Below, piece after piece: positions 6,086 to 34,490 of a stretch of 45,753 nucleotides of DNA. The stretch is from Candidatus Bathyarchaeia archaeon (GTDB taxonomy: Archaea > Thermoproteota > Bathyarchaeia > Bathyarchaeales > Bathycorpusculaceae). Under the pieces are notes generated by a model. It was not told the origin of the DNA. It made no database searches and saw only the letters and a program-made list of their open reading frames with translations. The stretch is from the NCBI GenBank assembly GCA_041500425.1, contig JBGQME010000016.1, positions 1-45,753 on the forward strand, in the 5' to 3' direction. Positions within the stretch are counted from its first letter, which is position 1. Each line of letters starts with the position of its first letter. A program made the translations under genes and the position numbers.

Positions 6086-6474
6086 AAGCCTACGTTGAAG
6101 CTATATATACGCTCAGCTTCTGTTAGGAACCTGCTACTGTTTTGCATGGGTATTGCACTGTTTTTCGACCAATACAGACCCTACCCCCTAGGTTTTTTGT
6201 CGGAAAATCCTATCCTGTCTAGGCACCTTACCTTGTTGGCACCGCTTTTCTCCTAGTGTTTTCAGAACCAGCCTTCTAAGCGCCCCATACCCGCTATAAT
6301 GGTAGGGCCTTCTCGGAGCAAGCCTCAGAGTCCACGATATATCCAGAAAATGTCAGCAGTTCACTGCGGAAACCTGCACCAACCCAAACCGAACCTCTTA
6401 GATGATTTTCCAGTTCATGGGACTAGTGACTTCGAAAAAAGAGAAGGTGAGTGAGAGCTTTGTTTAGGTTGTGG

Positions 6475-6639
6475 CTATATTTTTCTTTTGTTTAAGACTG
6501 ATCTGAAGGATTTTCCACAGCACTCGTAAAGCCCAATCGTAAGTTCTGTTCTCTTGCCACTCTTGTCCTTTCTTCCAGCCATCTTCCAAGTCTTCTTAGG
6601 AGTACTCACTTCTTTCTTACACTTGGGACACTTAGCCAT
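6475..6639 (-). CDS. Cren7-like small basic chromatin protein (54 aa). Not in the ORF track because it is under 60 aa.
   Basis: Hand translation gives MAKCPKCKKEVSTPKKTWKMAGRKDKSGKRTELTIGLYECCGKSFRSVLNKRKI. The core K.W....GRK....IGL[FY]....GK.FR aligns with the Cren7 SH3-like fold (Cren7: [32 protein letters not shown]). It is highly basic. A TATA-like TTTTATC sits about 35 nt upstream and an A-run follows the stop. Confidence 0.5.
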   Translation of the reverse strand: MAKCPKCKKEVSTPKKTWKMAGRKDKSGKRTELTIGLYECCGKSFRSVLNKRKI

Positions 6640-6673
6640 AACGTTCCCTTTTCAAAAGATTACATGCTATGAA

Positions 6674-6681
6674 GATAAAAG
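6674..6681 (-). promoter_or_regulatory. TATA-box-like element upstream of the Cren7-like gene.
   Basis: Reverse strand reads AAAAATCTTTTATCTTCAT about 35 nt upstream of the ATG at 6639. Confidence 0.3.
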
Positions 6682-7037
6682 ATTTTTCATGCTTTGCATA
6701 GTTCACAGGCATTTCATGCGGCCCCTAGAAAGAATTCGGATAAAACGAATCAGCTAGGCGCTCTGTTCACACTTTGCGTCTTCTTGTAGACTATGACTGC
6801 CAGTAGTGTCGCTGTCACGAGTAATGCATAGGTTCTGTTTTTTCATTCTTGAGAACGCAGTTTCTTGCTGAGTTCGAGAAATGGTTTCAATACAAAGATG
6901 TAACTGAAGATGGTGAACAACGCATACATAATCCCTGATGCTAAGGCTTTCGAAAAGATTCTAGGTAGTCATAGAAGTTTACGATCGAACCACAGTGAAA
7001 CTTGCCCATACTTCATAACGGCATCAAGACCTAAATG

Positions 7038-7045
7038 TTTATTAC
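7038..7045 (+). promoter_or_regulatory. TATA-like element upstream of the L3 operon.
   Basis: TTTATTAC lies about 41 nt upstream of the rpl3 ATG (7086), in an AT-rich stretch. Confidence 0.3.
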
Positions 7046-7085
7046 TCATTGTTCTCATTCCTAGAAGACGCGAAGCGGAAAAACA

Positions 7086-8099
7086 ATGGGACACAGAAAA
7101 ACACACGCGCCCAGACACGGTTCACTCGCATACTTACCTAAACAGCGCGCTAAACGTCTAGTTGCCAGAATCCGCTTCTGGCCAAAAATACAGGCTGAAA
7201 CGCCTAGACTTCTCGGTTTCACAGCCTATAAGGCTGGAATGACTCATGTCTTCAGGATAGAAGACCGTAAACGTTCACCAAACTTTGGAAAAGAGGTAAT
7301 GAGTTCAGCAACGATCCTGGAAACACCCCCAATAATCGTATGCGCCATAAGAGCCTACAACAAAGACATCTATGGACTGCATGCCCTGTCGGAGGCCTGG
7401 ATGAAGGATCCACCAGACGATCTTGAAAGAGTATTAACACTCCCGGAAAACTTCAACCCAGATGAAAGCATCAAGAAAATCGAGGAAAATTTGGCAAATG
7501 TGGCAAAACTGCGCGTCATCGCAATAACGCAGCCAAAGCAAACTAGTGTACCTAAGAAAAAACCCGACATCGCAGAAATAGAAGTCGGCGGCGGCACAAC
7601 CCAACAACAGTTTGAATACGCGAAATCTCTGCTAGGAAAGTCAATCACGCCCACAGAACTGTTCAAAGACGGCCAATACATAGACGCAATAGCCGTCTCA
7701 ACAGGAAAAGGCTTCCAAGGACCCGTAAAACGCTGGGGAGTAACCATACTCCAAGCAAAAGGACGAAAAACAAAACGAGGCGTAGCCACCCTCGGACCAT
7801 GGAACCCGCATCACGTGATGTACAGCGTTGCAAGAGCCGGACAAATGGGATACCACCAGAGAACTGAACGCAACAAACGCATCCTCAAAATAGGAGCCGA
7901 CGGCAAAGAAGTAACCCCAAAAGGCGGCTTCATAAGATACGGTGAAGTCCGCGGCTCCTATATGCTGTTGGAAGGAAGCATCGCAGGCACAGAAAAACGC
8001 CCAATAAGATTACGCTACCCATCACGACCGCCAAGAAACGTTGCAGAAGAACCACCCCAAATCACCCACATATCCCTCGAATCCCCCCAAGGAAAATAG
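7086..8099 (+). CDS. rpl3: 50S ribosomal protein L3 (uL3).
   Basis: MGHRKTHAPRHGSLAYLPKQRAKR... is a typical archaeal uL3 N-terminus. 337 aa. Confidence 0.95.
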   Translation: MGHRKTHAPRHGSLAYLPKQRAKRLVARIRFWPKIQAETPRLLGFTAYKAGMTHVFRIEDRKRSPNFGKEVMSSATILETPPIIVCAIRAYNKDIYGLHALSEAWMKDPPDDLERVLTLPENFNPDESIKKIEENLANVAKLRVIAITQPKQTSVPKKKPDIAEIEVGGGTTQQQFEYAKSLLGKSITPTELFKDGQYIDAIAVSTGKGFQGPVKRWGVTILQAKGRKTKRGVATLGPWNPHHVMYSVARAGQMGYHQRTERNKRILKIGADGKEVTPKGGFIRYGEVRGSYMLLEGSIAGTEKRPIRLRYPSRPPRNVAEEPPQITHISLESPQGK

Positions 8100-24265: not shown

Positions 24266-24631
24266 CTAGGCGCTTTTAACTTTCCTTATCTTTTCAATAT
24301 TCTCTAGTAAGCCGGAAAGTGCATTGCCCAGTTTCTGCACCTCTTCTACGTCTTCTGTGTGCTGCATCTTGTTCTGTATTTCCTGAACCTTTACCAGAAG
24401 TGTAGCTTCAAGACTACTCAGAGCCATGGAGCTTGTCGCCTCTTCAGCTTCTTCACCTTCTTTCACTACTATGACTTTCTTTTCGCATTTTGCACACCAA
24501 ATCGTGTCATCTTTCAATCGAAAAAGCGGTGAAGCGCAAGCTGGACAGGCCAGTTCTGTGAGGGTTGAGCCTTGGCGTAGCAGATCAGCCATGTGCTTAA
24601 CGTGTTGTTCTTCGCTGTTTTTTCGCGACAA
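24266..24631 (-). CDS. Zn-ribbon protein of the UPF0148 / Sjogren-syndrome-autoantigen-1-like family.
   Basis: 121 aa. ...ADLLRQGSTLTELACPACASPLFRLKDDTIWCAKCEKKV matches the archaeal UPF0148 N-terminus (ELL..GA.ML...CP.CG.PLFR..DG...CP.C). An acidic coiled-coil tail follows. Confidence 0.6.
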   Translation of the reverse strand: MSRKNSEEQHVKHMADLLRQGSTLTELACPACASPLFRLKDDTIWCAKCEKKVIVVKEGEEAEEATSSMALSSLEATLLVKVQEIQNKMQHTEDVEEVQKLGNALSGLLENIEKIRKVKSA

Positions 24632-24708: not shown

Positions 24709-24987
24709 ATGGTCAGAAAGAAGAAGATGGAAGAGTACGAAGAGCGGATAAAGCAGGCTATTGCCGTGCTTGAACAGGTCTCTGAAGACACTACCACGCC
24801 TAGAAACATCAGGAGAACGGCAAAAGATTCGATGAGCACCTTGCAGACAACCGAGTACACACCTGCGGTGAGAGCCGCGAACGCAATTTCGCTTTTGGAT
24901 GAGATTCTGCAAGACCCAAACATGCCACAGTACACGAGAGTAAAGTTGTGGAACGTAATGAGCTTCATAGAAGCAATAAGAGATTAA
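24709..24987 (+). CDS. UPF0147-family small helical protein.
   Basis: 92 aa. ...IKQAIAVLEQVSEDTTTPRNIRRTAKDS...AVRAANAISLLDEILQDPNMPQYTRVKLWNVMSFIEAI matches the conserved archaeal UPF0147 pattern (PRNIRR....VRAANAIS.L.EIS.DPNMP). Confidence 0.6.
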   Translation: MVRKKKMEEYEERIKQAIAVLEQVSEDTTTPRNIRRTAKDSMSTLQTTEYTPAVRAANAISLLDEILQDPNMPQYTRVKLWNVMSFIEAIRD

Positions 24988-25413: not shown

Positions 25414-26841
25414 ATGCTAGTTGTGACATCTAGCTTTGGGTTTCAGGGGATAAGCCCTTTGAAGTATGACGTGATAATTGTCGGTGCCGGTCCAGCAGGA
25501 ATATTCTCGGCTCTCGAACTCACCGAGAAAAACGACCTCAAAGTCCTCATGCTTGACAGAGGAAGAGACATAAACCAACGCAAATGCCCATCCAGCCGCG
25601 GATTCGAATGCGTCCACTGCGACCCGTGTGCAATTTTGTCTGGCTGGGGCGGGGCAGGAGCCTTCAGTGACGGAAAACTCACATTGTCAACAGAGGTAGG
25701 CGGCTGGCTTAACCAATATGTCTCAAACAAAGAGCTGGCGGAACTCCTGAACTATGCAGATAATATTTATCAGAAGTTCGGCGCAACGAAGTACACCTAC
25801 GGAGAGGACGTTGAAAAGATAGACGAGATCGAACGGAAGGCATCTCTGGCAGGTCTGAAACTAATTCGTCAAAGGATCCGTCACATGGGCACTGAATGGT
25901 GCGCCCAAACGCTTCAAAAGATGCGGCAAGAACTGAACGGAAAGGTGGAGTTCAAACCGAAAACAGACATTAAGGGATTAATAGTCAAGAATGGCGTCAT
26001 CGAGGGCGTTGTAACCATAGACGGCGAGAAATGTTTCGGAAAATATGTGATTGTTGCTCCTGGTAGAAGTGGTGCGGAATGGCTTCAGACTGAAGCCCAA
26101 GCTTTAGGTTTGAAGACGCTTAATAACCCAGTTGATATCGGCATAAGAGTTGAGGTTCTAGCTTCTGTCATGGAGGAGTTGACCAGTGTTCTGTACGAGC
26201 CCAAACTTATCTACTATTCGAGATCATTCGACGATCAGCTTCGCACTTTCTGTGTTGCTCCTTATGGGCAGGTCATAACAGAATCCTATGACGGAGTCTT
26301 AACCGTTAATGGTCAGAGCTATGCAGAGCAAAAAACGGAAAACACAAACTTTGCCATTCTGGTCAGCACGTCCTTCACTGAACCGTTCAAGGAGTCGATT
26401 GCCTATGGCAAGTATGTTGCCAGGCTTTCGAATCTTCTCAGCGGTGGCGTCATAATCCAGCGATTAGGTGATCTGGAATCAGGCAGGAGGTCAACGCCTG
26501 AAAGAATAGCCAGAAGCGTAGTGACCCCTACACTAAAGAACGCGACGCCAGGCGACTTGAGCTTTGTACTGCCATACCGTTATCTAGCAGACATAAGAGA
26601 GATGCTTCAAGCTTTGGACATGATCGCCCCAGGCATACACTCAAGAGACACTCTACTATATGGGATTGAGGTGAAATTCTATTCTTCAAGGCTGCAGCTT
26701 AGCAACTGTCTGGAAACCAAGGTTCACAACTTATTCACCATTGGAGATGGCGCAGGCGTTACAAGAGGGTTGATTCAAGCCTCAGCGTCAGGCGTTATCG
26801 TTGCGAGAGAAATTCTGAAGAGAGACAAAACGAAGGCGTAA
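25414..26841 (+). CDS. FAD-dependent oxidoreductase (COG2509-like uncharacterised FAD-dependent dehydrogenase).
   Basis: 475 aa. N-terminal dinucleotide-binding motif DVIIVGAGPAGIFSA. C-terminal GDGAGVTRGL FAD-binding motif. Confidence 0.8.
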   Translation: MLVVTSSFGFQGISPLKYDVIIVGAGPAGIFSALELTEKNDLKVLMLDRGRDINQRKCPSSRGFECVHCDPCAILSGWGGAGAFSDGKLTLSTEVGGWLNQYVSNKELAELLNYADNIYQKFGATKYTYGEDVEKIDEIERKASLAGLKLIRQRIRHMGTEWCAQTLQKMRQELNGKVEFKPKTDIKGLIVKNGVIEGVVTIDGEKCFGKYVIVAPGRSGAEWLQTEAQALGLKTLNNPVDIGIRVEVLASVMEELTSVLYEPKLIYYSRSFDDQLRTFCVAPYGQVITESYDGVLTVNGQSYAEQKTENTNFAILVSTSFTEPFKESIAYGKYVARLSNLLSGGVIIQRLGDLESGRRSTPERIARSVVTPTLKNATPGDLSFVLPYRYLADIREMLQALDMIAPGIHSRDTLLYGIEVKFYSSRLQLSNCLETKVHNLFTIGDGAGVTRGLIQASASGVIVAREILKRDKTKA

Positions 26842-26846
26842 AACCG

Positions 26847-27599
26847 ATGTCAGTGGTTGATGAAATTAAGTGCTCACATTGCGGCGGACCAATAGCGTTC
26901 AAGCCAGGCGAAATCTTGGCTACATGCAAGTACTGTGGCTTCACAGTGGTTATAGAGACTGGACAAACCTTCACGTTCGAGCATTCTCTGCTGATGAACA
27001 AATATGACCAGACGCAGGTTGAAGAACCAATTAGAGATTGGATGAAGGAAGGTTTCCTGAAGCCTCCAGATTTGGCGAAGAAGTCGAAAATAGTGCAGAA
27101 AGAGCTGATCTATCTGCCTTTCTGGGTCGTGTCCGCAGCAGCCAAGAGCAGCTATGAAGGGATTTTTGAGCGCATAGCCCCAGCTATTGTGAAAGAGGGA
27201 AAGATTGAGAAGGAATACAACTGGCTTGTCTTGGCAAGGAAGGCCACAGAGTTTCCGACGAAGGAGTATGATGTGCCGCTGGAGGGCAAGATCCCGTTTG
27301 ACTTTCGGAAGATTGAAGCTTTTGCTAAGGTTTTGAATAGCGAGATCGATAGGGATGAGGCTGTGGAGCTTGCGAAACAGCAGATTGAGGATCATCATCA
27401 TTTCCTGATTAAAGAGGATGTGGACAAGGTCATCGAAATGAAAACTGAATTGAACGTGAAACAGGTGGTTTACTTGCATGCTCCCATATGGTTTGTCAAA
27501 TACGAATACAAAGGCAAAGACTACCAGTTGCTGGTGGATGGGGCAACAGGAACACCCATTAAAGGAGACATTCCTTCTGCTGGGTTTGGAATGCTTTGA
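26847..27599 (+). CDS. Uncharacterised protein with an N-terminal C4 zinc ribbon.
   Basis: 250 aa. CSHCGGP...CKYCGF at the N-terminus, then a soluble alpha/beta region. It starts 6 nt after the FAD-dependent gene. Confidence 0.55.
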   Translation: MSVVDEIKCSHCGGPIAFKPGEILATCKYCGFTVVIETGQTFTFEHSLLMNKYDQTQVEEPIRDWMKEGFLKPPDLAKKSKIVQKELIYLPFWVVSAAAKSSYEGIFERIAPAIVKEGKIEKEYNWLVLARKATEFPTKEYDVPLEGKIPFDFRKIEAFAKVLNSEIDRDEAVELAKQQIEDHHHFLIKEDVDKVIEMKTELNVKQVVYLHAPIWFVKYEYKGKDYQLLVDGATGTPIKGDIPSAGFGML

Positions 27600-27675
27600 C
27601 CAACAACAAAACTTTAAAAGCAACCATGTTTCTTGTGTGAAATCGAATAATAATAATAGAGTGAGGAAATGATTC

Positions 27676-28212
27676 TTGACAGAAAAAACCGATATGTATG
27701 ATAAGGCGAAGAAGCAGATGCGACTTTCCGAAAGAATAGCAGCTGCACTGCCAGGCTTTCGCGGTTACAAAGAGAAAGAACTACGCAGAGAGTCTGACAA
27801 GCTTATTCGAAATCACTTGTACCAGAAGCTTTTACAAGCCAGAACTGATCTTAAGGCTGTTTTTCAGAAGTTATCTGACCGCAGGGCGTTTGACGTTCTG
27901 ACGGACATGGATCGACTTGTTGCAAGGTTTGACCGTATAGTTGAGAAGGTGAACCATGCTTCTTACGGATATACAGGATTCTTTGACGTCGTCAAGGTTG
28001 AAGAGGAAGCTTTAGACAGGATGATTGATTTTGACAACCGCCTGATTGACGACGTCGACAACATCGTCAATGAAGTCAACGCATTCAAAGGCGAGGTCAT
28101 GAAACAGAAGTTTGACAAGGCCAAAGAGCGTGTACAAAGTCTGTCTGACACGTTGGAGGCTTTTGAAGAAGCCTTCGATAAAAGGCAAGAAACGATTTTA
28201 GGAGTGAGCTAG
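27676..28212 (+). CDS. Coiled-coil protein (possibly PspA/ESCRT-III-like, unverified).
   Basis: 178 aa. Strongly helical and heptad-rich. No TM segment. It ends 2 nt before the SPFH gene. Confidence 0.5.
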   Translation: MTEKTDMYDKAKKQMRLSERIAAALPGFRGYKEKELRRESDKLIRNHLYQKLLQARTDLKAVFQKLSDRRAFDVLTDMDRLVARFDRIVEKVNHASYGYTGFFDVVKVEEEALDRMIDFDNRLIDDVDNIVNEVNAFKGEVMKQKFDKAKERVQSLSDTLEAFEEAFDKRQETILGVS

Positions 28213-28213
28213 A

Positions 28214-29179
28214 ATGCCGCAAGTTGTAGAATGGAAGAACCCAGGCGCAGAAGACATTCTCTGGAAGTACCCCGACGAGGAGCTCACATGGGGCGCTCAG
28301 CTAACCGTGCACGAGTATGAGGTTGCGGTCTTCTTCAGAGATGGCAAGGCTTATGATGTGTTCAATGCTGGAAGACATCAATTAACAACGTTGAATTTGC
28401 CGGTTTTGACGAAGTTGCTGACGCGCATTGCTGGCTTCAAGGAGAAGCCTTTCAAGGCAAGCGCCATTTTCATTTCAACGAAGGTTTTCGCTGGAAAGTA
28501 TGGAACACAGGCACAGACCACGGAGCTTGCACCGCTAAAAGTGTTCGGTTCATTCTGGTTCAAGGTTGAAAGCCCAGAACTGTTCGTCAATGAAGTTGTT
28601 GGTGGACAAAACGCCTACACTTCTGAAGATGTCAACAACTATTTGCGCGGGTTCTTGAACGAGAAAATGATCGATGAGCTTTCACACTATGACTTGCTAA
28701 CCGTTTTCACACGGCTTGACGAGACATCGGTGATTGTCAAAAACGCAATCCTTGACTACTTTAAGCGGATCGGCTTAGAACTGACTGATTTGAAGTTTGA
28801 GGGCATAGACACGACGCCGGAGTATCGTGAACGGCTGTTCTGGTTGAGAACTGGAAAGGCCGCGCCTGAAGAAGTTCTGCGAATGGAGACAATCAAGAAG
28901 GCTGCGGAAGAGCTTGGAAAGTCGTCTGGAGCGGGGTTGGGCACGGGTATGGTGCTTATTCCGCAGGTGATGACTCCTACTGGTCCAGCGCAAGCGCCGG
29001 CTGCTGCTTTGGTTATCTGTCCGAAGTGCAACGCACATATTCCTGCAACATCGAAGTTCTGCCCCGAATGCGGAACGGTGATTACTCCGCCATCTAGCGG
29101 GACGATGGCTTGCCCGAAGTGTGGCAAGACTATTCCGTCATCTTCGAAGTTCTGTCCAGAATGCGGCGAGAAAATCTAG
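28214..29179 (+). CDS. SPFH/Band_7_1-family protein (the so-called virion core protein family) with a C-terminal tandem zinc-ribbon.
   Basis: The N-terminus MPQVVEWKNPGAEDILWKYPDEELTWGAQLTVHEYEVAVFFRDGKAYDVFNAGRH matches the Band_7_1 family. The C-terminus has two CPKC..13 aa..CPECG zinc ribbons after a Gly-rich linker. Confidence 0.7.
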   Translation: MPQVVEWKNPGAEDILWKYPDEELTWGAQLTVHEYEVAVFFRDGKAYDVFNAGRHQLTTLNLPVLTKLLTRIAGFKEKPFKASAIFISTKVFAGKYGTQAQTTELAPLKVFGSFWFKVESPELFVNEVVGGQNAYTSEDVNNYLRGFLNEKMIDELSHYDLLTVFTRLDETSVIVKNAILDYFKRIGLELTDLKFEGIDTTPEYRERLFWLRTGKAAPEEVLRMETIKKAAEELGKSSGAGLGTGMVLIPQVMTPTGPAQAPAAALVICPKCNAHIPATSKFCPECGTVITPPSSGTMACPKCGKTIPSSSKFCPECGEKI

Positions 29180-29198
29180 GTGCGGAGGTGGCCGTTAA

Positions 29199-29537
29199 AT
29201 GGCTGAGCGGAGTTTGCTTTCGATTGGCATACTTCTGGCAATTGTGGTGGTCAGTATACTTCTTTATCAGCCTCTGCAAGTCATAAAAGACTGGACTTTG
29301 ACTCTGCCATTGATAGTCTTGCTGTCTGGTCTTTGGGCGATGGTGCTTTCTGGTATGCGGTCTTCTAGCCCTCAGAAATATGAACGCGGAGCGTTTAGCA
29401 CTCTTTCGTGGGGTTTGCTGCTTGTTGCGATTGGCGGTGCTTGGTTCCTGTACGGCTATGGCTGGTACTACTCGTTGATAGTGATACTGCTTGCGCTTGC
29501 TGGCTTAGCGATTGCTGCTTCCCTGAAACGGAAATAG
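29199..29537 (+). CDS. Small integral membrane protein (3-4 TM).
   Basis: 112 aa and almost entirely hydrophobic helices. It is the last gene of the tight cluster, before lysS. Confidence 0.5.
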   Translation: MAERSLLSIGILLAIVVVSILLYQPLQVIKDWTLTLPLIVLLSGLWAMVLSGMRSSSPQKYERGAFSTLSWGLLLVAIGGAWFLYGYGWYYSLIVILLALAGLAIAASLKRK

Positions 29538-29573
29538 CCTTCAGTATTTCTTCTAAACCTTTTTCTATTCTCT

Positions 29574-31214
29574 ATGCAGTTAATGCTAGCAGAGGCCAAA
29601 TGCATCATGAGCGAGAAGACGATCGGTCGCGGTACATGGTATGACAAGATGGCTGCAAAGATCACTGAGAGAGAGGGAAAGCTAGGCAGAGACATGGATT
29701 TATTGAGAACAGAGATGGGCATTGCAGCTTCTGGTTTCCCGCATATTGGCAACTTGAGCGACGCGGCCAGGTCTTTCACCGTGACCTTAGCGTTGAGAGA
29801 GCAAGGCTTCAATTCTGAGCTTATCGCTTTTGCCGATGACAAGGATGGCTTAAGAAAGGTTCCGGCTGGAATGCCCGAGTCTCTGGAACAGCATTTGGGT
29901 AGGCCAGTGACCGATATTCCGGATATTTTCGGTTGCCACAAGAGCTACGGGGAACACATGACGTTGCTGGTTCGGGAAGGCATGGACAAGTGCGGTATCG
30001 AGTACAAGTTCATGTCGGCCACAGAAGTTTACAAAAGCGGGTTGTTTGACAACGAGATCAGAACCATTCTTCTGAATGCAAAGAAAATAGGAGAGATTAT
30101 GAGAGAGGAGGTTGGACAAGAAAAGTTTCTGGAAATTCTGCCTTATTTCGCGGTCTGCGAGAACTGCGGTCGAATTTACACGACTAAGACTTATGATTTT
30201 CTGCCCAAGGAGAACAAGGTTCTGTACGCGTGTGAGGGGATGGAGGTCAAAGGGCGGTGGCTGGAGGGCTGCGGGCATAAGGGTGAGATGGATTACAGGA
30301 AGGGTGAGGGGAAGCTAACCTGGAAGGGCGAGTTTGCGGTTCGTTGGAAGGCTTTGGACATTAGGTTTGAAGCTTTTGGGAAGGAGGTTGCTGATTCGGC
30401 GCGCGTGAATGATCGCATATGCCGAGAAATACTCGATTGGGAGCCGCCATCTCATGCGAAGTACGAGTTGTTTTTGGACAAGAGTGGCAAGAGAATGTCA
30501 AAGTCTGCTGGAGTAGGTCTCACTCCGCAAACGTGGTTCAAGTACGGTTCTCCAACTTCCCTCATGTTGCTGATGCTGAAGCGGTTTGTTGGTACGCGAG
30601 CGTTAGACGTGACTGATGTGCCGATTTACATGAATGAGCTGGGTGATCTGGAATACGTATACTTCGGTAAGAAACAGGCAAAGAGCGAAAGAGAACTTGT
30701 CAAGCTTCGGGGTTTGTACGAGTACTGCAGGGCTTTAGAGCCGCCTAAGAAGCCAAGCGTTAACGTGCCTTACAACTTGATGACGTTTCTTGTCAGGGTG
30801 GCTCCCAAAGGCAACGAAGAAGAGTACATAACCGAGAAGCTTCGCAGCTATGGCTACTTGCAGAAGAATCAGACTCTAGACGAGGATGTGAAAAGGCGAA
30901 TTGAGTATGCGTCTAATTGGATTAGGGATTTTGAGGAGATAAAAGAAACCGCAGTCACCCTCAGCGGTGATGAGAAAAAAGCTGTGGCAGAGTTGATAGA
31001 GGTGTTGAAGATCGAGGATGAATCTGAGAAGATACAGAACGCCGTGTTCAACATCGCTAAGAAACACAAGCTACAGGCAGGCAGTTTCTTCAAGGTTCTC
31101 TACAGTGTGCTGTTGGGGACCCTGCAGGGGCCCAGATTGGGTCCGTACATTCTTGCAATGGGAAAAGAGAACGTCACTGATGCCCTGCAAAGAGCATTAA
31201 GCCAACGCGAATAG
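29574..31214 (+). CDS. lysS: Lysyl-tRNA synthetase, class I (LysK-type).
   Basis: HIGH-type motif PHIGN. KMSKS-type motif RMSKSAGVG. The class I LysRS architecture is present. The start is likely the internal Met MSEKTIG (29598). Confidence 0.95.
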   Translation: MQLMLAEAKCIMSEKTIGRGTWYDKMAAKITEREGKLGRDMDLLRTEMGIAASGFPHIGNLSDAARSFTVTLALREQGFNSELIAFADDKDGLRKVPAGMPESLEQHLGRPVTDIPDIFGCHKSYGEHMTLLVREGMDKCGIEYKFMSATEVYKSGLFDNEIRTILLNAKKIGEIMREEVGQEKFLEILPYFAVCENCGRIYTTKTYDFLPKENKVLYACEGMEVKGRWLEGCGHKGEMDYRKGEGKLTWKGEFAVRWKALDIRFEAFGKEVADSARVNDRICREILDWEPPSHAKYELFLDKSGKRMSKSAGVGLTPQTWFKYGSPTSLMLLMLKRFVGTRALDVTDVPIYMNELGDLEYVYFGKKQAKSERELVKLRGLYEYCRALEPPKKPSVNVPYNLMTFLVRVAPKGNEEEYITEKLRSYGYLQKNQTLDEDVKRRIEYASNWIRDFEEIKETAVTLSGDEKKAVAELIEVLKIEDESEKIQNAVFNIAKKHKLQAGSFFKVLYSVLLGTLQGPRLGPYILAMGKENVTDALQRALSQRE

Positions 31215-31467: not shown

Positions 31468-31704
31468 TTGGGGGAGAGGGAATTGTTGAACAAGGTTATT
31501 TCTTGGGCAATGCTCGCGATGCTTCTTGCTGCGGGCTTGGTTTTGGTTCTTAAGACACCGGTAGTCAAAGCGACTGATACCATCTATATTAGGGCTGACG
31601 GCTCAATAGACCCACCCACAGCACCAATGCAACAAAATGCGAACAATCACACTTTGGCCAGTGATGGTTTCACATTGCAAGGTTCAGAAGGAAAGGAGAA
31701 ATGA
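31468..31704 (+). CDS. Small secreted protein, or an N-terminal remnant of a beta-helix/dockerin paralog (signal peptide plus the TIYIRADGSIDPPTAP motif).
   Basis: 78 aa. It has a hydrophobic signal-like N-terminus and the same TIYIRADGSIDPPTAP motif that opens the paralog at 36155. The TGA overlaps the ATG of the next ORF (ATGA). Confidence 0.4.
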   Translation: MGERELLNKVISWAMLAMLLAAGLVLVLKTPVVKATDTIYIRADGSIDPPTAPMQQNANNHTLASDGFTLQGSEGKEK

Positions 31705-34490
31705 TTGGGAAAGCCGCATCGGTAATGATGTGCGTATCGCTGCTAATAAGCATGCTAACCATTGCATTAGACATAAAACCAGTTGAAGCGAACCCAGCAA
31801 TTATTAATGTGCCCGAAGACTGCTCAACCATACAGGCAGCCATAAATACGGCAAATCTAGGAGATACAATTAATGTATCTTCAGGAACATACCGTGAGAA
31901 CGTGGTTCTGAACAAGACAGTTTCGCTCATCGGGGAGAACAAGCACAACACTGTTATTGATGGAAGCGGCACTGGAAACGTGATTAATGTAACAGCTAAC
32001 GACGTCAGCATAAGCGGCTTCACGATAAGAAACAGTGGGACATTATCATGGGTCGATTGCGGTATCCATGTTTACTACCAAAGCTATGGTAACAACATAA
32101 GCGACAACATTTTGACAAATAACTCAGTAGGAGTTTTCCTCGACGGTAGCAGGAACAATGCCCTTGCTAATAACTATGCCGAATCAAACTGGCCCATAGA
32201 TATTTGCCTCTTCTGTTCCGATAACAATGTCCTTGCTGGTAACGATGTCAAGTCAATCGGTATGGGTGGTTCTAACAATAATATTCTGATTGGCAACAAC
32301 GCTTCTTCAAACATCGGCGGGATCGGAATTCAAGCGGGCGGCTTCAATAACACTTATATTAACAACACTGCGTCAAACAACCGGATAGGAATTCGTCTCT
32401 CAGGTTGCAACAATGTCCTTATGGGTAATAACGTCTCATTCAACGACGAGGCTGGAATACACCTCATGACTGAGCCAAATCCGGAAACGCCATGCGAACA
32501 CAACATTCTTATTGGGAACATAGCCTCAAACACCCTCTCAGTATGGGGTGACGGAATCCGTGTCGATTTTTGCAACAACAACACCATTACTAATAACGTC
32601 GTTTCCTCAAACAACGGTTATGGAATTGACCTATCCGGTTCCAGTAATGACACCATCACCAACAACACCATTTTATTGAACAACCAAGCTGGGATCAGGC
32701 TCGGCACTTATGGAGAAGCTGTAAATGATAGATACTTCAGCAAAAACAACACCCTTATCGGAAATACTATTTCCTCAAACTATTATTATGGGATCTTGCT
32801 TGAACGTTCTAACGGTAACAAGGTTTTCCACAACGAGTTCATCAATAATATGGCTGTTCAAGCAATCTCAGCCTCACCTGAGTATGTAAACACATGGGAT
32901 GATGGTTACCCTTCTGGCGGCAACTATTGGAGCGACTATACTGGCGCGGACTTGTACAGTGGTCTTTATCAAAATGAGATAGGTCATGATGGAATAGGCG
33001 ACACACCATACGTTATCGATTCAAACAACCAAGATAATTATCCGCTTGTGAAGCCTTGGGAATTCATTGGCAATGAGACTATCTACATTAGGGCAGATGG
33101 AAGCGTTTATCCTTCAGGTGCTCCAGTCCATCGAGAGGAAGACCTCTACGCCTTGACTGACAGCATCACCAGTGACGCTGATGGAATCGTCGTTGAGAGG
33201 AATGATATTATATTCGATGGTGGAGGCTATAGTATTCAGGGATATGGAGTCGGAAACGGCTTTAGCTTGTTTGGCATACACAACTTCACCCTCGAGAACA
33301 CGAACATCCAAAGCTTCATGAATGGTACGTGCCTAGTTTCTTCTTCGAATAACACCATAATACGGAACAACATAACAGACACCTTGATGGGATTTTTCCT
33401 CAGTTCTTCTTTCAACAACACGCTTTCTGGAAACAATGTGACAGCGAACGTGGGATACGGAGTCTGGGGTATCAGTTCTTCATACAACGATGTGAGTGAG
33501 AACATCATAGCAACAAAAGACAGAATCTATTCCGGCATCGCTTTCTGCTCGTCTTCGAACAACACTATGATGTCAAACGATGTAACCGGCAACTCTGAGG
33601 GCATTCGGCTTGAAGGTTCTTCAAACTGCAGCATTGTTGGGAACAGCATAACAGCAAATGCAGTTGGCATCCAACTTTCTGATTCTTCAGACTCAAACAT
33701 TTTCTTCGAAAACAGCATAGTAGACAACTCATTCGGGATTCGGTTCATTTCATTACCCGATTCCTTGCCATGTTCTGGCAACAAGTTCTATCACAACAAC
33801 CTTGCAAACAACGCACAGCAGGTCGAACTATCTACGTCGAGCGCAATCGCAACCGTTTGGGATGATGGTTATCCTAGTGGCGGAAACTACTGGAGCGACT
33901 ACAATGGTGCAGACTTGCACAATGGGCCTCACCAGGACGTGACTGGCAGCGACGGTGTTGGAGACACACCCTATGTCATTGATGGAGTTAATCAAGACAA
34001 CTATCCATTCATGAGTCTGAACGGGTGGCTAACCTATCCGATATCAACTGAAAGCAACGTCACAATAACCGATATGAGGGCTGACGAATACTCTCTAAAC
34101 TTTACAGCCTCCGGCCCTATAGGGGAGACGGGCTACGTCAACGCCACTGTGCCAGTGGGACTTAACGCCACCGACATCACAGTATTCGTAGACGACGTTC
34201 AACCGAGCCCACCATTTCCAACAATCACCTCTAACGGCACACACTACTTCGTCTACTTCGAATTCACCCTCAGCACCCACGACATTAGCATACAGTATAA
34301 ACGCACAATTCTAGGCGACGTAAATGCAGACGGTGTCGTTGACAGCACCGATCTTGGCATACTAGGCAGTGCATGGGGCTCCTTCAAAGGTGATCCAAAC
34401 TACATTTCAGAAGCAGACATCAACGAAGACAGCGTAGTAGACTCAAGCGATCTAGGCATTATGGGCGCCCACTGGGGCGAAACCGAATAA
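31701..34490 (+). CDS. Large secreted right-handed parallel beta-helix (NosD/PbH1-repeat) protein with a C-terminal dockerin domain.
   Basis: 929 aa. It has a signal peptide and the beta-helix N-cap IINVPEDCSTIQAAINTANLGDTINVSSGTYRENVVL. It contains dozens of NN..xGN imperfect about 22-aa repeats. The module YPSGGNYWSDY.GADL...GDTPYVID..NQDNYP appears twice. The C-terminus GDVNADGVVDSTDLGIL...ADINEDSVVDSSDLGIMGAHWGETE is dockerin-type Ca-binding repeats. Confidence 0.85.
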   Translation: MIGKAASVMMCVSLLISMLTIALDIKPVEANPAIINVPEDCSTIQAAINTANLGDTINVSSGTYRENVVLNKTVSLIGENKHNTVIDGSGTGNVINVTANDVSISGFTIRNSGTLSWVDCGIHVYYQSYGNNISDNILTNNSVGVFLDGSRNNALANNYAESNWPIDICLFCSDNNVLAGNDVKSIGMGGSNNNILIGNNASSNIGGIGIQAGGFNNTYINNTASNNRIGIRLSGCNNVLMGNNVSFNDEAGIHLMTEPNPETPCEHNILIGNIASNTLSVWGDGIRVDFCNNNTITNNVVSSNNGYGIDLSGSSNDTITNNTILLNNQAGIRLGTYGEAVNDRYFSKNNTLIGNTISSNYYYGILLERSNGNKVFHNEFINNMAVQAISASPEYVNTWDDGYPSGGNYWSDYTGADLYSGLYQNEIGHDGIGDTPYVIDSNNQDNYPLVKPWEFIGNETIYIRADGSVYPSGAPVHREEDLYALTDSITSDADGIVVERNDIIFDGGGYSIQGYGVGNGFSLFGIHNFTLENTNIQSFMNGTCLVSSSNNTIIRNNITDTLMGFFLSSSFNNTLSGNNVTANVGYGVWGISSSYNDVSENIIATKDRIYSGIAFCSSSNNTMMSNDVTGNSEGIRLEGSSNCSIVGNSITANAVGIQLSDSSDSNIFFENSIVDNSFGIRFISLPDSLPCSGNKFYHNNLANNAQQVELSTSSAIATVWDDGYPSGGNYWSDYNGADLHNGPHQDVTGSDGVGDTPYVIDGVNQDNYPFMSLNGWLTYPISTESNVTITDMRADEYSLNFTASGPIGETGYVNATVPVGLNATDITVFVDDVQPSPPFPTITSNGTHYFVYFEFTLSTHDISIQYKRTILGDVNADGVVDSTDLGILGSAWGSFKGDPNYISEADINEDSVVDSSDLGIMGAHWGETE

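Follow-up and report, generated by a model that had tools for sequence, protein, structure and literature searches.

The DNA analysed here (the window) is a stretch of 45,753 nucleotides (nt) from a Candidatus Bathyarchaeia archaeon (GenBank assembly GCA_041500425.1, contig JBGQME010000016.1, positions 1 to 45,753). It contains four adjacent genes, called g1 to g4 in the following, of which g3 codes for an SPFH protein of the Band_7_1 clade. SPFH proteins are universal, and their mechanisms are only now being resolved. For the soluble Band_7_1 clade, we know of nothing that has been established beyond a single operon of Bacillus. Our main finding concerns the gene that precedes g3. As judged from sequence comparison and gene order, g2 belongs to an uncharacterised, widespread family that is an obligate upstream partner of Band_7_1 SPFH genes. 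For the cluster as a whole, we infer with reasonable, not high, confidence that it codes for an SPFH scaffold under the membrane, which serves membrane maintenance or the response to membrane stress and is partly homologous to the SamG/SamI proteins of Bacillus subtilis.

A first-pass annotation of the window had described four co-directional genes, and the list of open reading frames (ORFs) agrees with it on their order, strand and coordinates. The two flanking genes had also been named correctly, as Pfam matches confirm.

25414-26841, upstream flank of g1: flavin adenine dinucleotide (FAD)-dependent protein (PF21688/PF07992; COG2509-like)
26847-27599, + strand: g1, 250 amino acids (aa)
27676-28212, + strand: g2, 178 aa, TTG start
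28214-29179, + strand: g3, 321 aa
29199-29537, + strand: g4, 112 aa
29574-31214, downstream flank of g4: class I lysyl-tRNA synthetase (LysRS), lysS (PF01921, E 4e-102)

The coupling of g2 to g3 is the strongest feature of the locus. A genome scan with a g2 alignment confirmed more than 583 loci; we used the best 80 of these and added four bacterial loci through exact-protein look-ups. All ORFs of these loci were searched with single-sequence phmmer and then with iterated hidden Markov models; membrane helices were assigned from plain hydropathy profiles. The g2 homologue is located directly 5' of the Band_7_1 gene in 79 of the 79 loci that have exactly one ORF match to each, and this adjacency is found in every locus whose contig continues. 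In 71 of these 79 loci, the g3 start lies within -4 to +6 nt of the g2 stop, which implies co-translation and a stoichiometric g2-g3 complex; frameshifts in contigs or wrongly placed start codons account for the outliers. The pair spans Bathyarchaeia (g2 identity from 78% down to 41%) and other Thermoproteota, and it also occurs in Nitrososphaeria (L076), Thermofilaceae (L081), Thermoplasmatota (L075, L078) and Hadarchaeota (L077), and among bacteria in Chloroflexota (L079, L082) and Riflebacteria (L084). In a group of soil Bathyarchaeia (L050-L062, L068), g2 and g3 are all that is kept of the cluster. The clustering is far beyond chance: g2 and g3 are adjacent in every related locus examined. 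The close relatives (L001 and the best 120 matches) carry no synteny information, as they have kept the entire gene neighbourhood, FAD gene and lysS included. The first-pass annotation had named lack of conserved synteny as the observation that would speak against a functional cluster; a conserved neighbourhood is what was found. A few Bathyarchaeia-type loci carry foreign labels: L016, L026, L035, L039, L050 and L063 (g2 identity 42-63%, most sharing several neighbour genes) are labelled Krumholzibacteriaceae, Nanoarchaeia, Methanocella, Bacteroidales, Nitrospirales and Acidiferrales, respectively. These labels are probably metagenome binning errors.

The g2 family is large. Identity to g2 is 72-99% in the 120 best clusters, and an exhaustive representative search at E<=1e-3 gave 1210 clusters (50% identity), of which 553 reach E<=1e-10. 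Family members are mostly 165-185 aa long, and homologues begin at the same M/L-S/T-E-K position as g2 does. There is no Pfam family match to g2, and 46 diverse members share no consistent Pfam family at E<=1. The sole named model that matches g2 is NCBIfam NF047596 ("LIMLP_15305 family"; E 2e-15, residues 38-173). This Leptospira family has no assigned function; its match to g2 scores 57 bits, far under the equivalog cutoff of 210, and shows that the g2 family reaches spirochaetes. The literature on LIMLP_15305 consists of a single paper with the locus tag, which is a table entry only, as neighbour of a small RNA. In the openly accessible literature, we found no paper on the g2 family or on its coupling to Band_7_1; subscription journals were outside this search, and an earlier description is possible. 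Two motifs stand out in the alignment of 46 homologues.

27751..27810, + strand: g2 motif 1, PGF/Y-x-GYKEKExRRExDKxxR, residues 26-45
27958..27996, + strand: g2 motif 2, A-x-YGY-x-GFFD-xx-K, residues 95-107

In motif 1, P26, Y31, E35, R38, D41 and R45 are invariant in all 46 homologues, down to 27% identity. In motif 2, A95, G98 and G101 are nearly invariant.

The first-pass annotation had taken g2 for a coiled-coil protein. The AlphaFold2 model (predicted local distance difference test 78, predicted template modelling score (pTM) 0.74) gives a different picture: with helices at residues 29-68, 72-105, 110-142 and 149-175, g2 is predicted to form a compact, closed four-helix bundle. Motif 2 is placed in the loop between helix 2 and helix 3. 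A Foldseek search against the PDB returned no match at E<=0.001, and the top-ranking structures are generic four-helix bundles (IncA, SPECT and chemoreceptor sensor domains). When g2 was compared with the sequences of solved structures, as a single sequence and as a profile, chance coiled-coil matches were all that was found. Several family members are fusion proteins. In P0264 and P0371, the g2 part is preceded by a DZR-type zinc ribbon and a linker, the ribbon being of the same type as that on the SPFH protein. P0305 combines g2 with DUF4178, and P0299, P0321, P0384 and P0390 combine g2 with long Pro/Gly/Ser-rich tails.

The product of g3 had been described as an SPFH (Band_7_1) protein with a double zinc-ribbon tail, and this holds. 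It matches Band_7_1 (PF13421; E 1e-29, 104.2 bits, cutoff 24) and Band_7 (PF01145; E 8e-16, 59 bits, cutoff 23.6), so that by its domain matches it is a member of the Band_7_1 clade of the SPFH superfamily. The protein has three parts.

28262..28837, + strand: SPFH (Band_7_1) domain, residues 17-208 (Pfam envelopes 17-205 for PF13421 and 31-208 for PF01145)
28919..29011, + strand: Gly/Pro/Ala-rich low-complexity linker, residues 236-266 (from the sequence)
29012..29176, + strand: tandem C4 zinc ribbons, residues 267-290 and 298-321 (Zn_Ribbon_1 9.5e-15 over two stretches, DZR 9e-12)

All eight Cys of g3 are in the two CPxC...CPxCG ribbons. Its sequence has no hydrophobic segment at the N-terminus, and the SPFH domain, which ends at residue 208, is separated from the linker and the ribbons behind it by a short helical stretch of about 30 residues. 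There is no Pfam match to Flot or NfeD. A linker of the g3 type is also present in YdjI of B. subtilis, for which this feature has been described (PMC8581546), and in every aligned homologue. From residue 1 to the last ribbon, g3 is similar to YdjI (BLASTP E 4e-16, 21% identity), and in terms of sequence and domain order it is a homologue of YdjI/SamI with the same architecture. The C-terminal tail of Band_7_1 proteins is modular and always stands behind a low-complexity linker: archaea, Bacillus and L079 have one to four zinc ribbons, Ralstonia and the Chloroflexi locus L082 have a SHOCT-like helix pair, and Riflebacteria have GYF_2.

The product of g1 is, by similarity along most of its length, a homologue of YdjG/SamG. 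It aligns colinearly with YdjG residues 53-302 (BLASTP E 3e-10, 259 columns; phmmer E 6e-12), and the g1 family profile matches YdjG in hhalign (97.3%, E 1.7e-11, 227 columns). The two proteins have the motifs YLPFW / YIPFW and P(I/V)W..(Y)(E/D)Y......(D/N)G.TG in common, and the C-terminal end of g1, GDIPSAGFGML, is the exact point where YdjG runs on into its hydrophobic C-terminal segment. By hydropathy, g1 is soluble and without a membrane helix; an N-terminal C4 zinc ribbon is followed by an alpha+beta domain. The structure model is of moderate confidence only.

26865..26942, + strand: g1 zinc ribbon, residues 7-32 (C9, C12, C27, C30; Cys pattern)
27009..27566, + strand: g1 YpeB/PepSY/NTF2-like alpha+beta region (conserved motifs YLPFW and YLHAPIWFVKYEYKG..YQL..DGATG)

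The four Cys of the ribbon are invariant in 33 homologues, Pfam zinc-ribbon matches to it are weak, and g1 has no other Cys. Identity is 76-99% among the 120 Bathyarchaeia clusters listed. In Bathyarchaeia, the g1-like genes code for soluble proteins of about 250 aa. Two tandem g1-like paralogues (about 250-400 aa) are present in L069, L071, L073, L074, L077 and L081. Each has two C-terminal hydrophobic segments by hydropathy, except the 404-aa copy of L081, which has one; as judged from these segments, the tandem paralogues are the membrane-anchored, YdjG-like form. L069 also has a 424-aa ATPase-like ORF (6204-7478; Walker A GRRKTGKT) between the SPFH gene and the g4-like/g1-like genes, which is not seen at the same spot in the sister loci L073 and L071.

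The product of g4 has four hydrophobic segments, which are four predicted membrane helices by hydropathy. Its basic residues are grouped at both termini and in the central loop, and because of the positive-inside rule the loop is predicted to face the cytoplasm.

29355..29393, + strand: conserved central loop of g4, residues 53-65, consensus pqKYeR (54 homologues)

No Pfam family matches g4. Assignments to DUF350 or to YdjH were rejected, as there is no DUF350 match and no similarity to YdjH. The loci searched contain 53 g4-like ORFs across phyla. They adjoin g2/g3 in Bathyarchaeia, Thermoplasmatota (L075, L078), Nitrososphaeria (L076) and other Thermoproteota (L069-L074). Their position varies: it is 3' of g3 in nearly all closer Bathyarchaeia, 5' of g2 in Thermoplasmatota and Nitrososphaeria, and 5' of the tandem g1-like pair in four Thermoproteota loci. 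We consider g4 a candidate for the membrane anchor of the module. The first-pass annotation had placed C4 zinc ribbons on both outer proteins; the Cys census (four in g1, eight in g3, none in g2 and g4) puts them on g1 and g3. Nor is the pairing of two zinc-ribbon proteins unusual, since the same pairing exists in the Bacillus system.

That system is the pspA-ydjGHI operon, a sigma-W-controlled membrane-stress operon of B. subtilis (PMC8581546; bioRxiv 10.64898/2026.02.06.704340). YdjG and YdjH are needed for recruitment of YdjI to the membrane, and YdjI in turn is needed for PspA foci and recruits PspA (PMC8581546). SamI restrains signalling by SamGH and is predicted to form a higher-order oligomer (PMC8581546; bioRxiv 10.64898/2026.02.06.704340). 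To recover the operon, the published ydjG forward primer was back-translated to a degenerate pattern with which metagenome contigs were scanned. Two loci (L086 and L088) carry pspA-ydjG-ydjH-ydjI, and the Pfam content of the recovered operon is PspA_IM30, a TFIIB-type zinc ribbon, TPM_phosphatase, and Band_7_1 (E 8e-43) with a zinc ribbon.

The first-pass idea of a membrane or envelope-stress module thereby gains an unexpected anchor in the homology of g1 to YdjG/SamG and of g3 to YdjI/SamI. Like YdjI, g3 is a cytosolic, anchorless Band_7_1 protein with a low-complexity linker and C-terminal zinc ribbon (for the Bacillus system, see also PMC11237479), and g1 and YdjG both combine a zinc ribbon with a YpeB/NTF2-like domain that has shared motifs. 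In both systems, the SPFH gene and the YdjG-type gene are clustered with genes for small membrane proteins. The differences are as clear. The archaeal cluster lacks PspA and the TPM-domain protein YdjH, and neither has a homologue in the window or in any of the 85 non-Bacillus loci (phmmer, PspA at E<=1). Instead, the new four-helix family (g2) is encoded directly 5' of the archaeal SPFH gene, and an unrelated membrane protein with four helices (g4) is found in place of YdjH. There is one ribbon and no membrane helix in g1, whereas YdjG has two ribbons; g3 has two full ribbons, YdjI one. Because two of the four defining components were tested and are missing, the cluster falls, in gene content, outside the PspA-YdjGHI system in its Bacillus definition, while the SamG/SamI half is, by homology, shared by descent.

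Nor is the cluster, by its domain content, a canonical anchored SPFH cage. With HflK/C-FtsH, stomatin/QmcA-NfeD and the flotillins, it has in common the SPFH superfamily domain and a dedicated operon partner, and an oligomer of g3 on the membrane face would be expected. In contrast to these proteins, g3 has neither an N-terminal membrane helix or hairpin nor a long C-terminal coiled coil or flotillin domain. We saw neither NfeD nor FtsH as a partner, and the closest solved structures (flotillin-2, QmcA and stomatin) are weak matches to g3 (E 0.006-0.05).

A third comparison concerns the polyamine-linked proteobacterial variant DUF350 - Band_7_1 - DUF4178 - SpeD (PMC11237479), in which, according to Ravi et al., the band-7 protein replaces a CesT/Tir-PspA dyad. 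On the Ralstonia solanacearum megaplasmid CP085044.1 (L089, 3530-7122), we observed the order DUF350 - Band_7_1 (SHOCT-like tail) - DUF4178 - small ORF - SpeD. This operon lacks g2 and occurs in about 130 Ralstonia megaplasmids. It resembles our cluster in having a small polytopic membrane protein 5' of Band_7_1 and a swappable C-terminal adaptor after the linker, and the g2 family member P0305 is fused to DUF4178. It differs in having no g2 and no YdjG-like gene, in its SHOCT-like tail instead of zinc ribbons, and in its polyamine genes, of which there are none here; also, g4 does not match DUF350. Across the three settings, as far as gene content tells, the Band_7_1 protein is the invariable part, with partners that differ from lineage to lineage.

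Bacillus: PspA/YdjG/YdjH
Proteobacteria: DUF350/DUF4178
Archaea and some bacteria: g2, with or without g1 and g4

The genes are probably organised in two transcription units. The intergenic gaps are 5 nt (FAD gene to g1), 76 nt (g1 to g2), 1 nt (g2 to g3) and 19 nt (g3 to g4), each one less than the 6, 77, 2 and 20 nt given by the first-pass annotation. The 76-nt spacer contains a promoter-like element.

27609-27621, + strand: archaeal B recognition element (BRE)/TATA-like element AAACTTTAAAAGC, about 55 nt 5' of the g2 start

The position and sequence of AAACTTTAAAAGC are kept in most of the 18 loci aligned, also where g1 is missing, and a GAGGAA Shine-Dalgarno-like site is located about 10 nt 5' of the TTG start of g2. 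The TATA-like box itself is at 27613-27619, and transcription is predicted to start about 25 nt further on. From these features, AAACTTTAAAAGC is the probable promoter of g2-g3-g4. As g2 is preceded by its own conserved TATA-like element and g1 starts 5 nt past the FAD gene, the likely units are (FAD-)g1 and g2-g3-g4. Of the tight four-gene cluster that had been proposed, the conserved neighbourhood thus stands, while joint transcription of all four genes is improbable. A T-rich run, CCTTTTTCT, is found directly 3' of the g4 stop (window 29538-29610) and is a possible terminator after g4.

The scaffold that we favour might work as follows. The g3 protein would oligomerise via its SPFH domain, like other SPFH proteins, and g2 would bind to it as a stoichiometric co-subunit or effector. 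In doing so, g2 may take the place that PspA holds in Bacillus, without being related to PspA. The soluble g2-g3 assembly could be tethered to the inner face of the membrane by g4 via its conserved basic cytoplasmic loop, and likewise by the membrane-anchored g1 paralogues where these are present. The small zinc ribbons may be protein-protein tethers, for which SHOCT-like or GYF_2 domains are swapped in elsewhere, some ribbons being on g2 itself; the domain shuffling seen in the fusions of zinc ribbon, linker and g2 (P0264, P0371) is consistent with one complex. The output might be that a stressed membrane is locally organised or stabilised, or that a membrane sensor is restrained as proposed for SamI.

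It is tempting to go further and to consider the g2/Band_7_1 pair an ancient, self-sufficient two-protein machine beneath the membrane of several archaeal phyla and deep bacterial lineages, in which g2 co-assembles with the SPFH protein, either as a helical wall supplied in trans or as a PspA substitute that is not of the ESCRT-III type. We regard this as possible, with rather low confidence. Canonical SPFH proteins (HflK/C, stomatin, flotillin) carry a helical "wall" in cis. If g2 supplied this wall in trans, g2 and g3 would co-assemble as a ring or cage on the membrane that is structural and independent of PspA. As a refinement of the scaffold reading this is attractive, and we hold it still more tentatively, as something that we infer throughout. 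The strict coupling of the g2 and g3 genes, which looks 1:1, would fit, as would the short helical stretch that is all g3 has between SPFH domain and linker, and the merely remote similarity of g3 to the solved SPFH cages (stomatin, QmcA, flotillin). In addition, the two invariant motifs of g2 should share one pole of the bundle, which suggests a single docking face. However, the Band_7_1 proteins of Bacillus and Ralstonia manage without g2, and tblastn with a bacterial g2 homologue found no match in 72,556 plasmid records, though 152 of these carry Band_7_1.

Several observations weigh against the scaffold reading in its full form. In Bathyarchaeia, g1 has no membrane helix, and here it begins only 5 nt past the FAD gene. 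Insertions part g1 from g2 in L007 (probably a mobile element) and L012 (other genes), and g1 stays with the FAD gene in both. In L043, g1 is likewise displaced from g2, but there is no FAD gene. In some Bathyarchaeia (L016, L029, L041, L049-L062), g1 is missing altogether. Its membership in the module is therefore weaker here than that of g2-g4, as g1 has no helix, is tied to the FAD gene and is sometimes missing. Beyond g1, the absence of PspA and of the TPM protein YdjH means that the Bacillus analogy spans only half of the system, and the synteny sample, being the best 80 of more than 583 matches to a Bathyarchaeia-led query, is archaea-biased. The insert of about 4.8 kilobases (kb) between g1 and g2 in L007 (1211-5877) contains a tyrosine-recombinase-like fragment and a 345-aa Cys-rich ORF; from this content, a mobile element has probably inserted into the cluster and divided it.

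The same observations can be read to mean that g1 stands outside the module here and works with the upstream FAD-dependent (COG2509-like) protein, the real unit being g2-g3-g4. The contrast between the 5-nt gap on its FAD side and the 76-nt spacer with the conserved TATA-like box argues for this, as do the stay of g1 beside the FAD gene where g2 is displaced and the several Bathyarchaeia that lost g1 yet keep g2-g4. We nevertheless think it unlikely. Some distant lineages lack the FAD gene (L063, L064, L069-L074, L077, L081) and yet have g1 homologues on the flanks of g2-g3, and in Bacillus YdjG shares an operon with YdjI and is needed for its localisation. The FAD-dependent protein and lysS themselves were rejected as module members; both adjoin the genes in closer Bathyarchaeia only.

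The first-pass annotation had raised the possibility that g2 is PspA- or ESCRT-III-like. In its strongest form, this would make g2 a highly diverged PspA/Vipp1/ESCRT-III-type membrane-remodelling polymer that is recruited by the SPFH protein, and the cluster a true archaeal orthologue of PspA-YdjGHI. There are likenesses: g2 is soluble, all-helical, of about equal size and genetically linked to a YdjI-type SPFH protein, which in B. subtilis recruits PspA (PMC8581546), and operons with g2-linked and PspA-linked Band_7_1 are mutually exclusive in the loci seen. Searches at the sequence level speak against it, with an hhalign probability of 0.1% for the g2 family profile against B. subtilis PspA and no match to the PspA_IM30 or Snf7 profiles at E<=1 for g2 itself or any of the 46 family members. 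The predicted fold tends to point the same way: there is no specific structural similarity (no PDB match at E<=0.001 in Foldseek, four-helix bundles on top), and the model is a closed bundle (pTM 0.74) without the extended alpha1-alpha2 hairpin. On these sequence and fold searches we rejected PspA/ESCRT-III as an assignment for g2, and we consider even a highly diverged relationship very improbable.

HflK/C acts with FtsH, and QmcA has a part in htpX/ftsH suppression. The module might accordingly regulate a membrane protease or protein quality control, with an HtpX-type M48 peptidase as client. Such peptidases are encoded divergently beside the g1 homologue in four loci, and in L001 one is located 2.3 kb downstream of lysS.

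L028 2400-3461, minus strand: HtpX-like M48 peptidase
L043 791-1831, minus strand: HtpX-like M48 peptidase
L063 3944-5023, minus strand: HtpX-like M48 peptidase
L064 3898-4952, minus strand: HtpX-like M48 peptidase
L001 11821-13263: HtpX-like M48 peptidase

With 5 of 88 loci, this linkage is too rare to count. M48 is missing from the window, is not next to the g2-g3 core, and the neighbourhoods that we inspected contain neither an NfeD nor an FtsH gene, so that we give the protease reading hardly any credence. Interpretation of the cluster as the remnant of a virus or as an island of anti-phage defence, for which only the historical annotation of Band_7_1 as "virion core protein" speaks, is effectively refuted by chance-level PADLOC matches (best 7e-4, to the JetC coiled coil), PHROG matches confined to the zinc ribbons, a stable chromosomal position between housekeeping genes in many species and an unremarkable base composition over the region.

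Some further features of the neighbourhood should be mentioned. Several ATGs in frame with the LysRS ORF (29574, 29583, 29601, 29607) are alternative candidate starts for lysS. Upstream, a divergent gene pair (window 24266-24631, minus strand, and 24709-24987, plus strand) codes for a zinc-ribbon protein similar to the Sjogren/scleroderma autoantigen p27 (PF06677) and for a UPF0147 protein; this pair is kept upstream of the cluster in many Bathyarchaeia loci. Downstream (window 31701-34490), a 929-aa secreted protein has many right-handed beta-helix (NosD/pectate-lyase-like) repeats and ends in two dockerin-like DxNxDGxVDxxD repeats, which look odd in an archaeon.

The SamG/SamI pair is not a peculiarity of Firmicutes, as archaeal relatives exist. 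Instead of PspA, the gene to which the SPFH gene is firmly tied in archaea and in several phyla of bacteria codes for an unstudied four-helix protein, whose family, with more than 1200 clusters at 50% identity, is large and has no Pfam model. A link between SPFH proteins and ESCRT-III has been proposed to be ancient (PMC10936438), and the locus bears on the question whether that link is general or lineage-specific. It also provides a concrete handle on how anchorless SPFH proteins reach membranes and act on them. If the pair is indeed an ancient, self-sufficient two-protein machine, SPFH proteins would gain in g2 a new class of partner, next to NfeD, FtsH and PspA, and g2/Band_7_1 would be the main membrane-maintenance device of the archaea that carry the pair.

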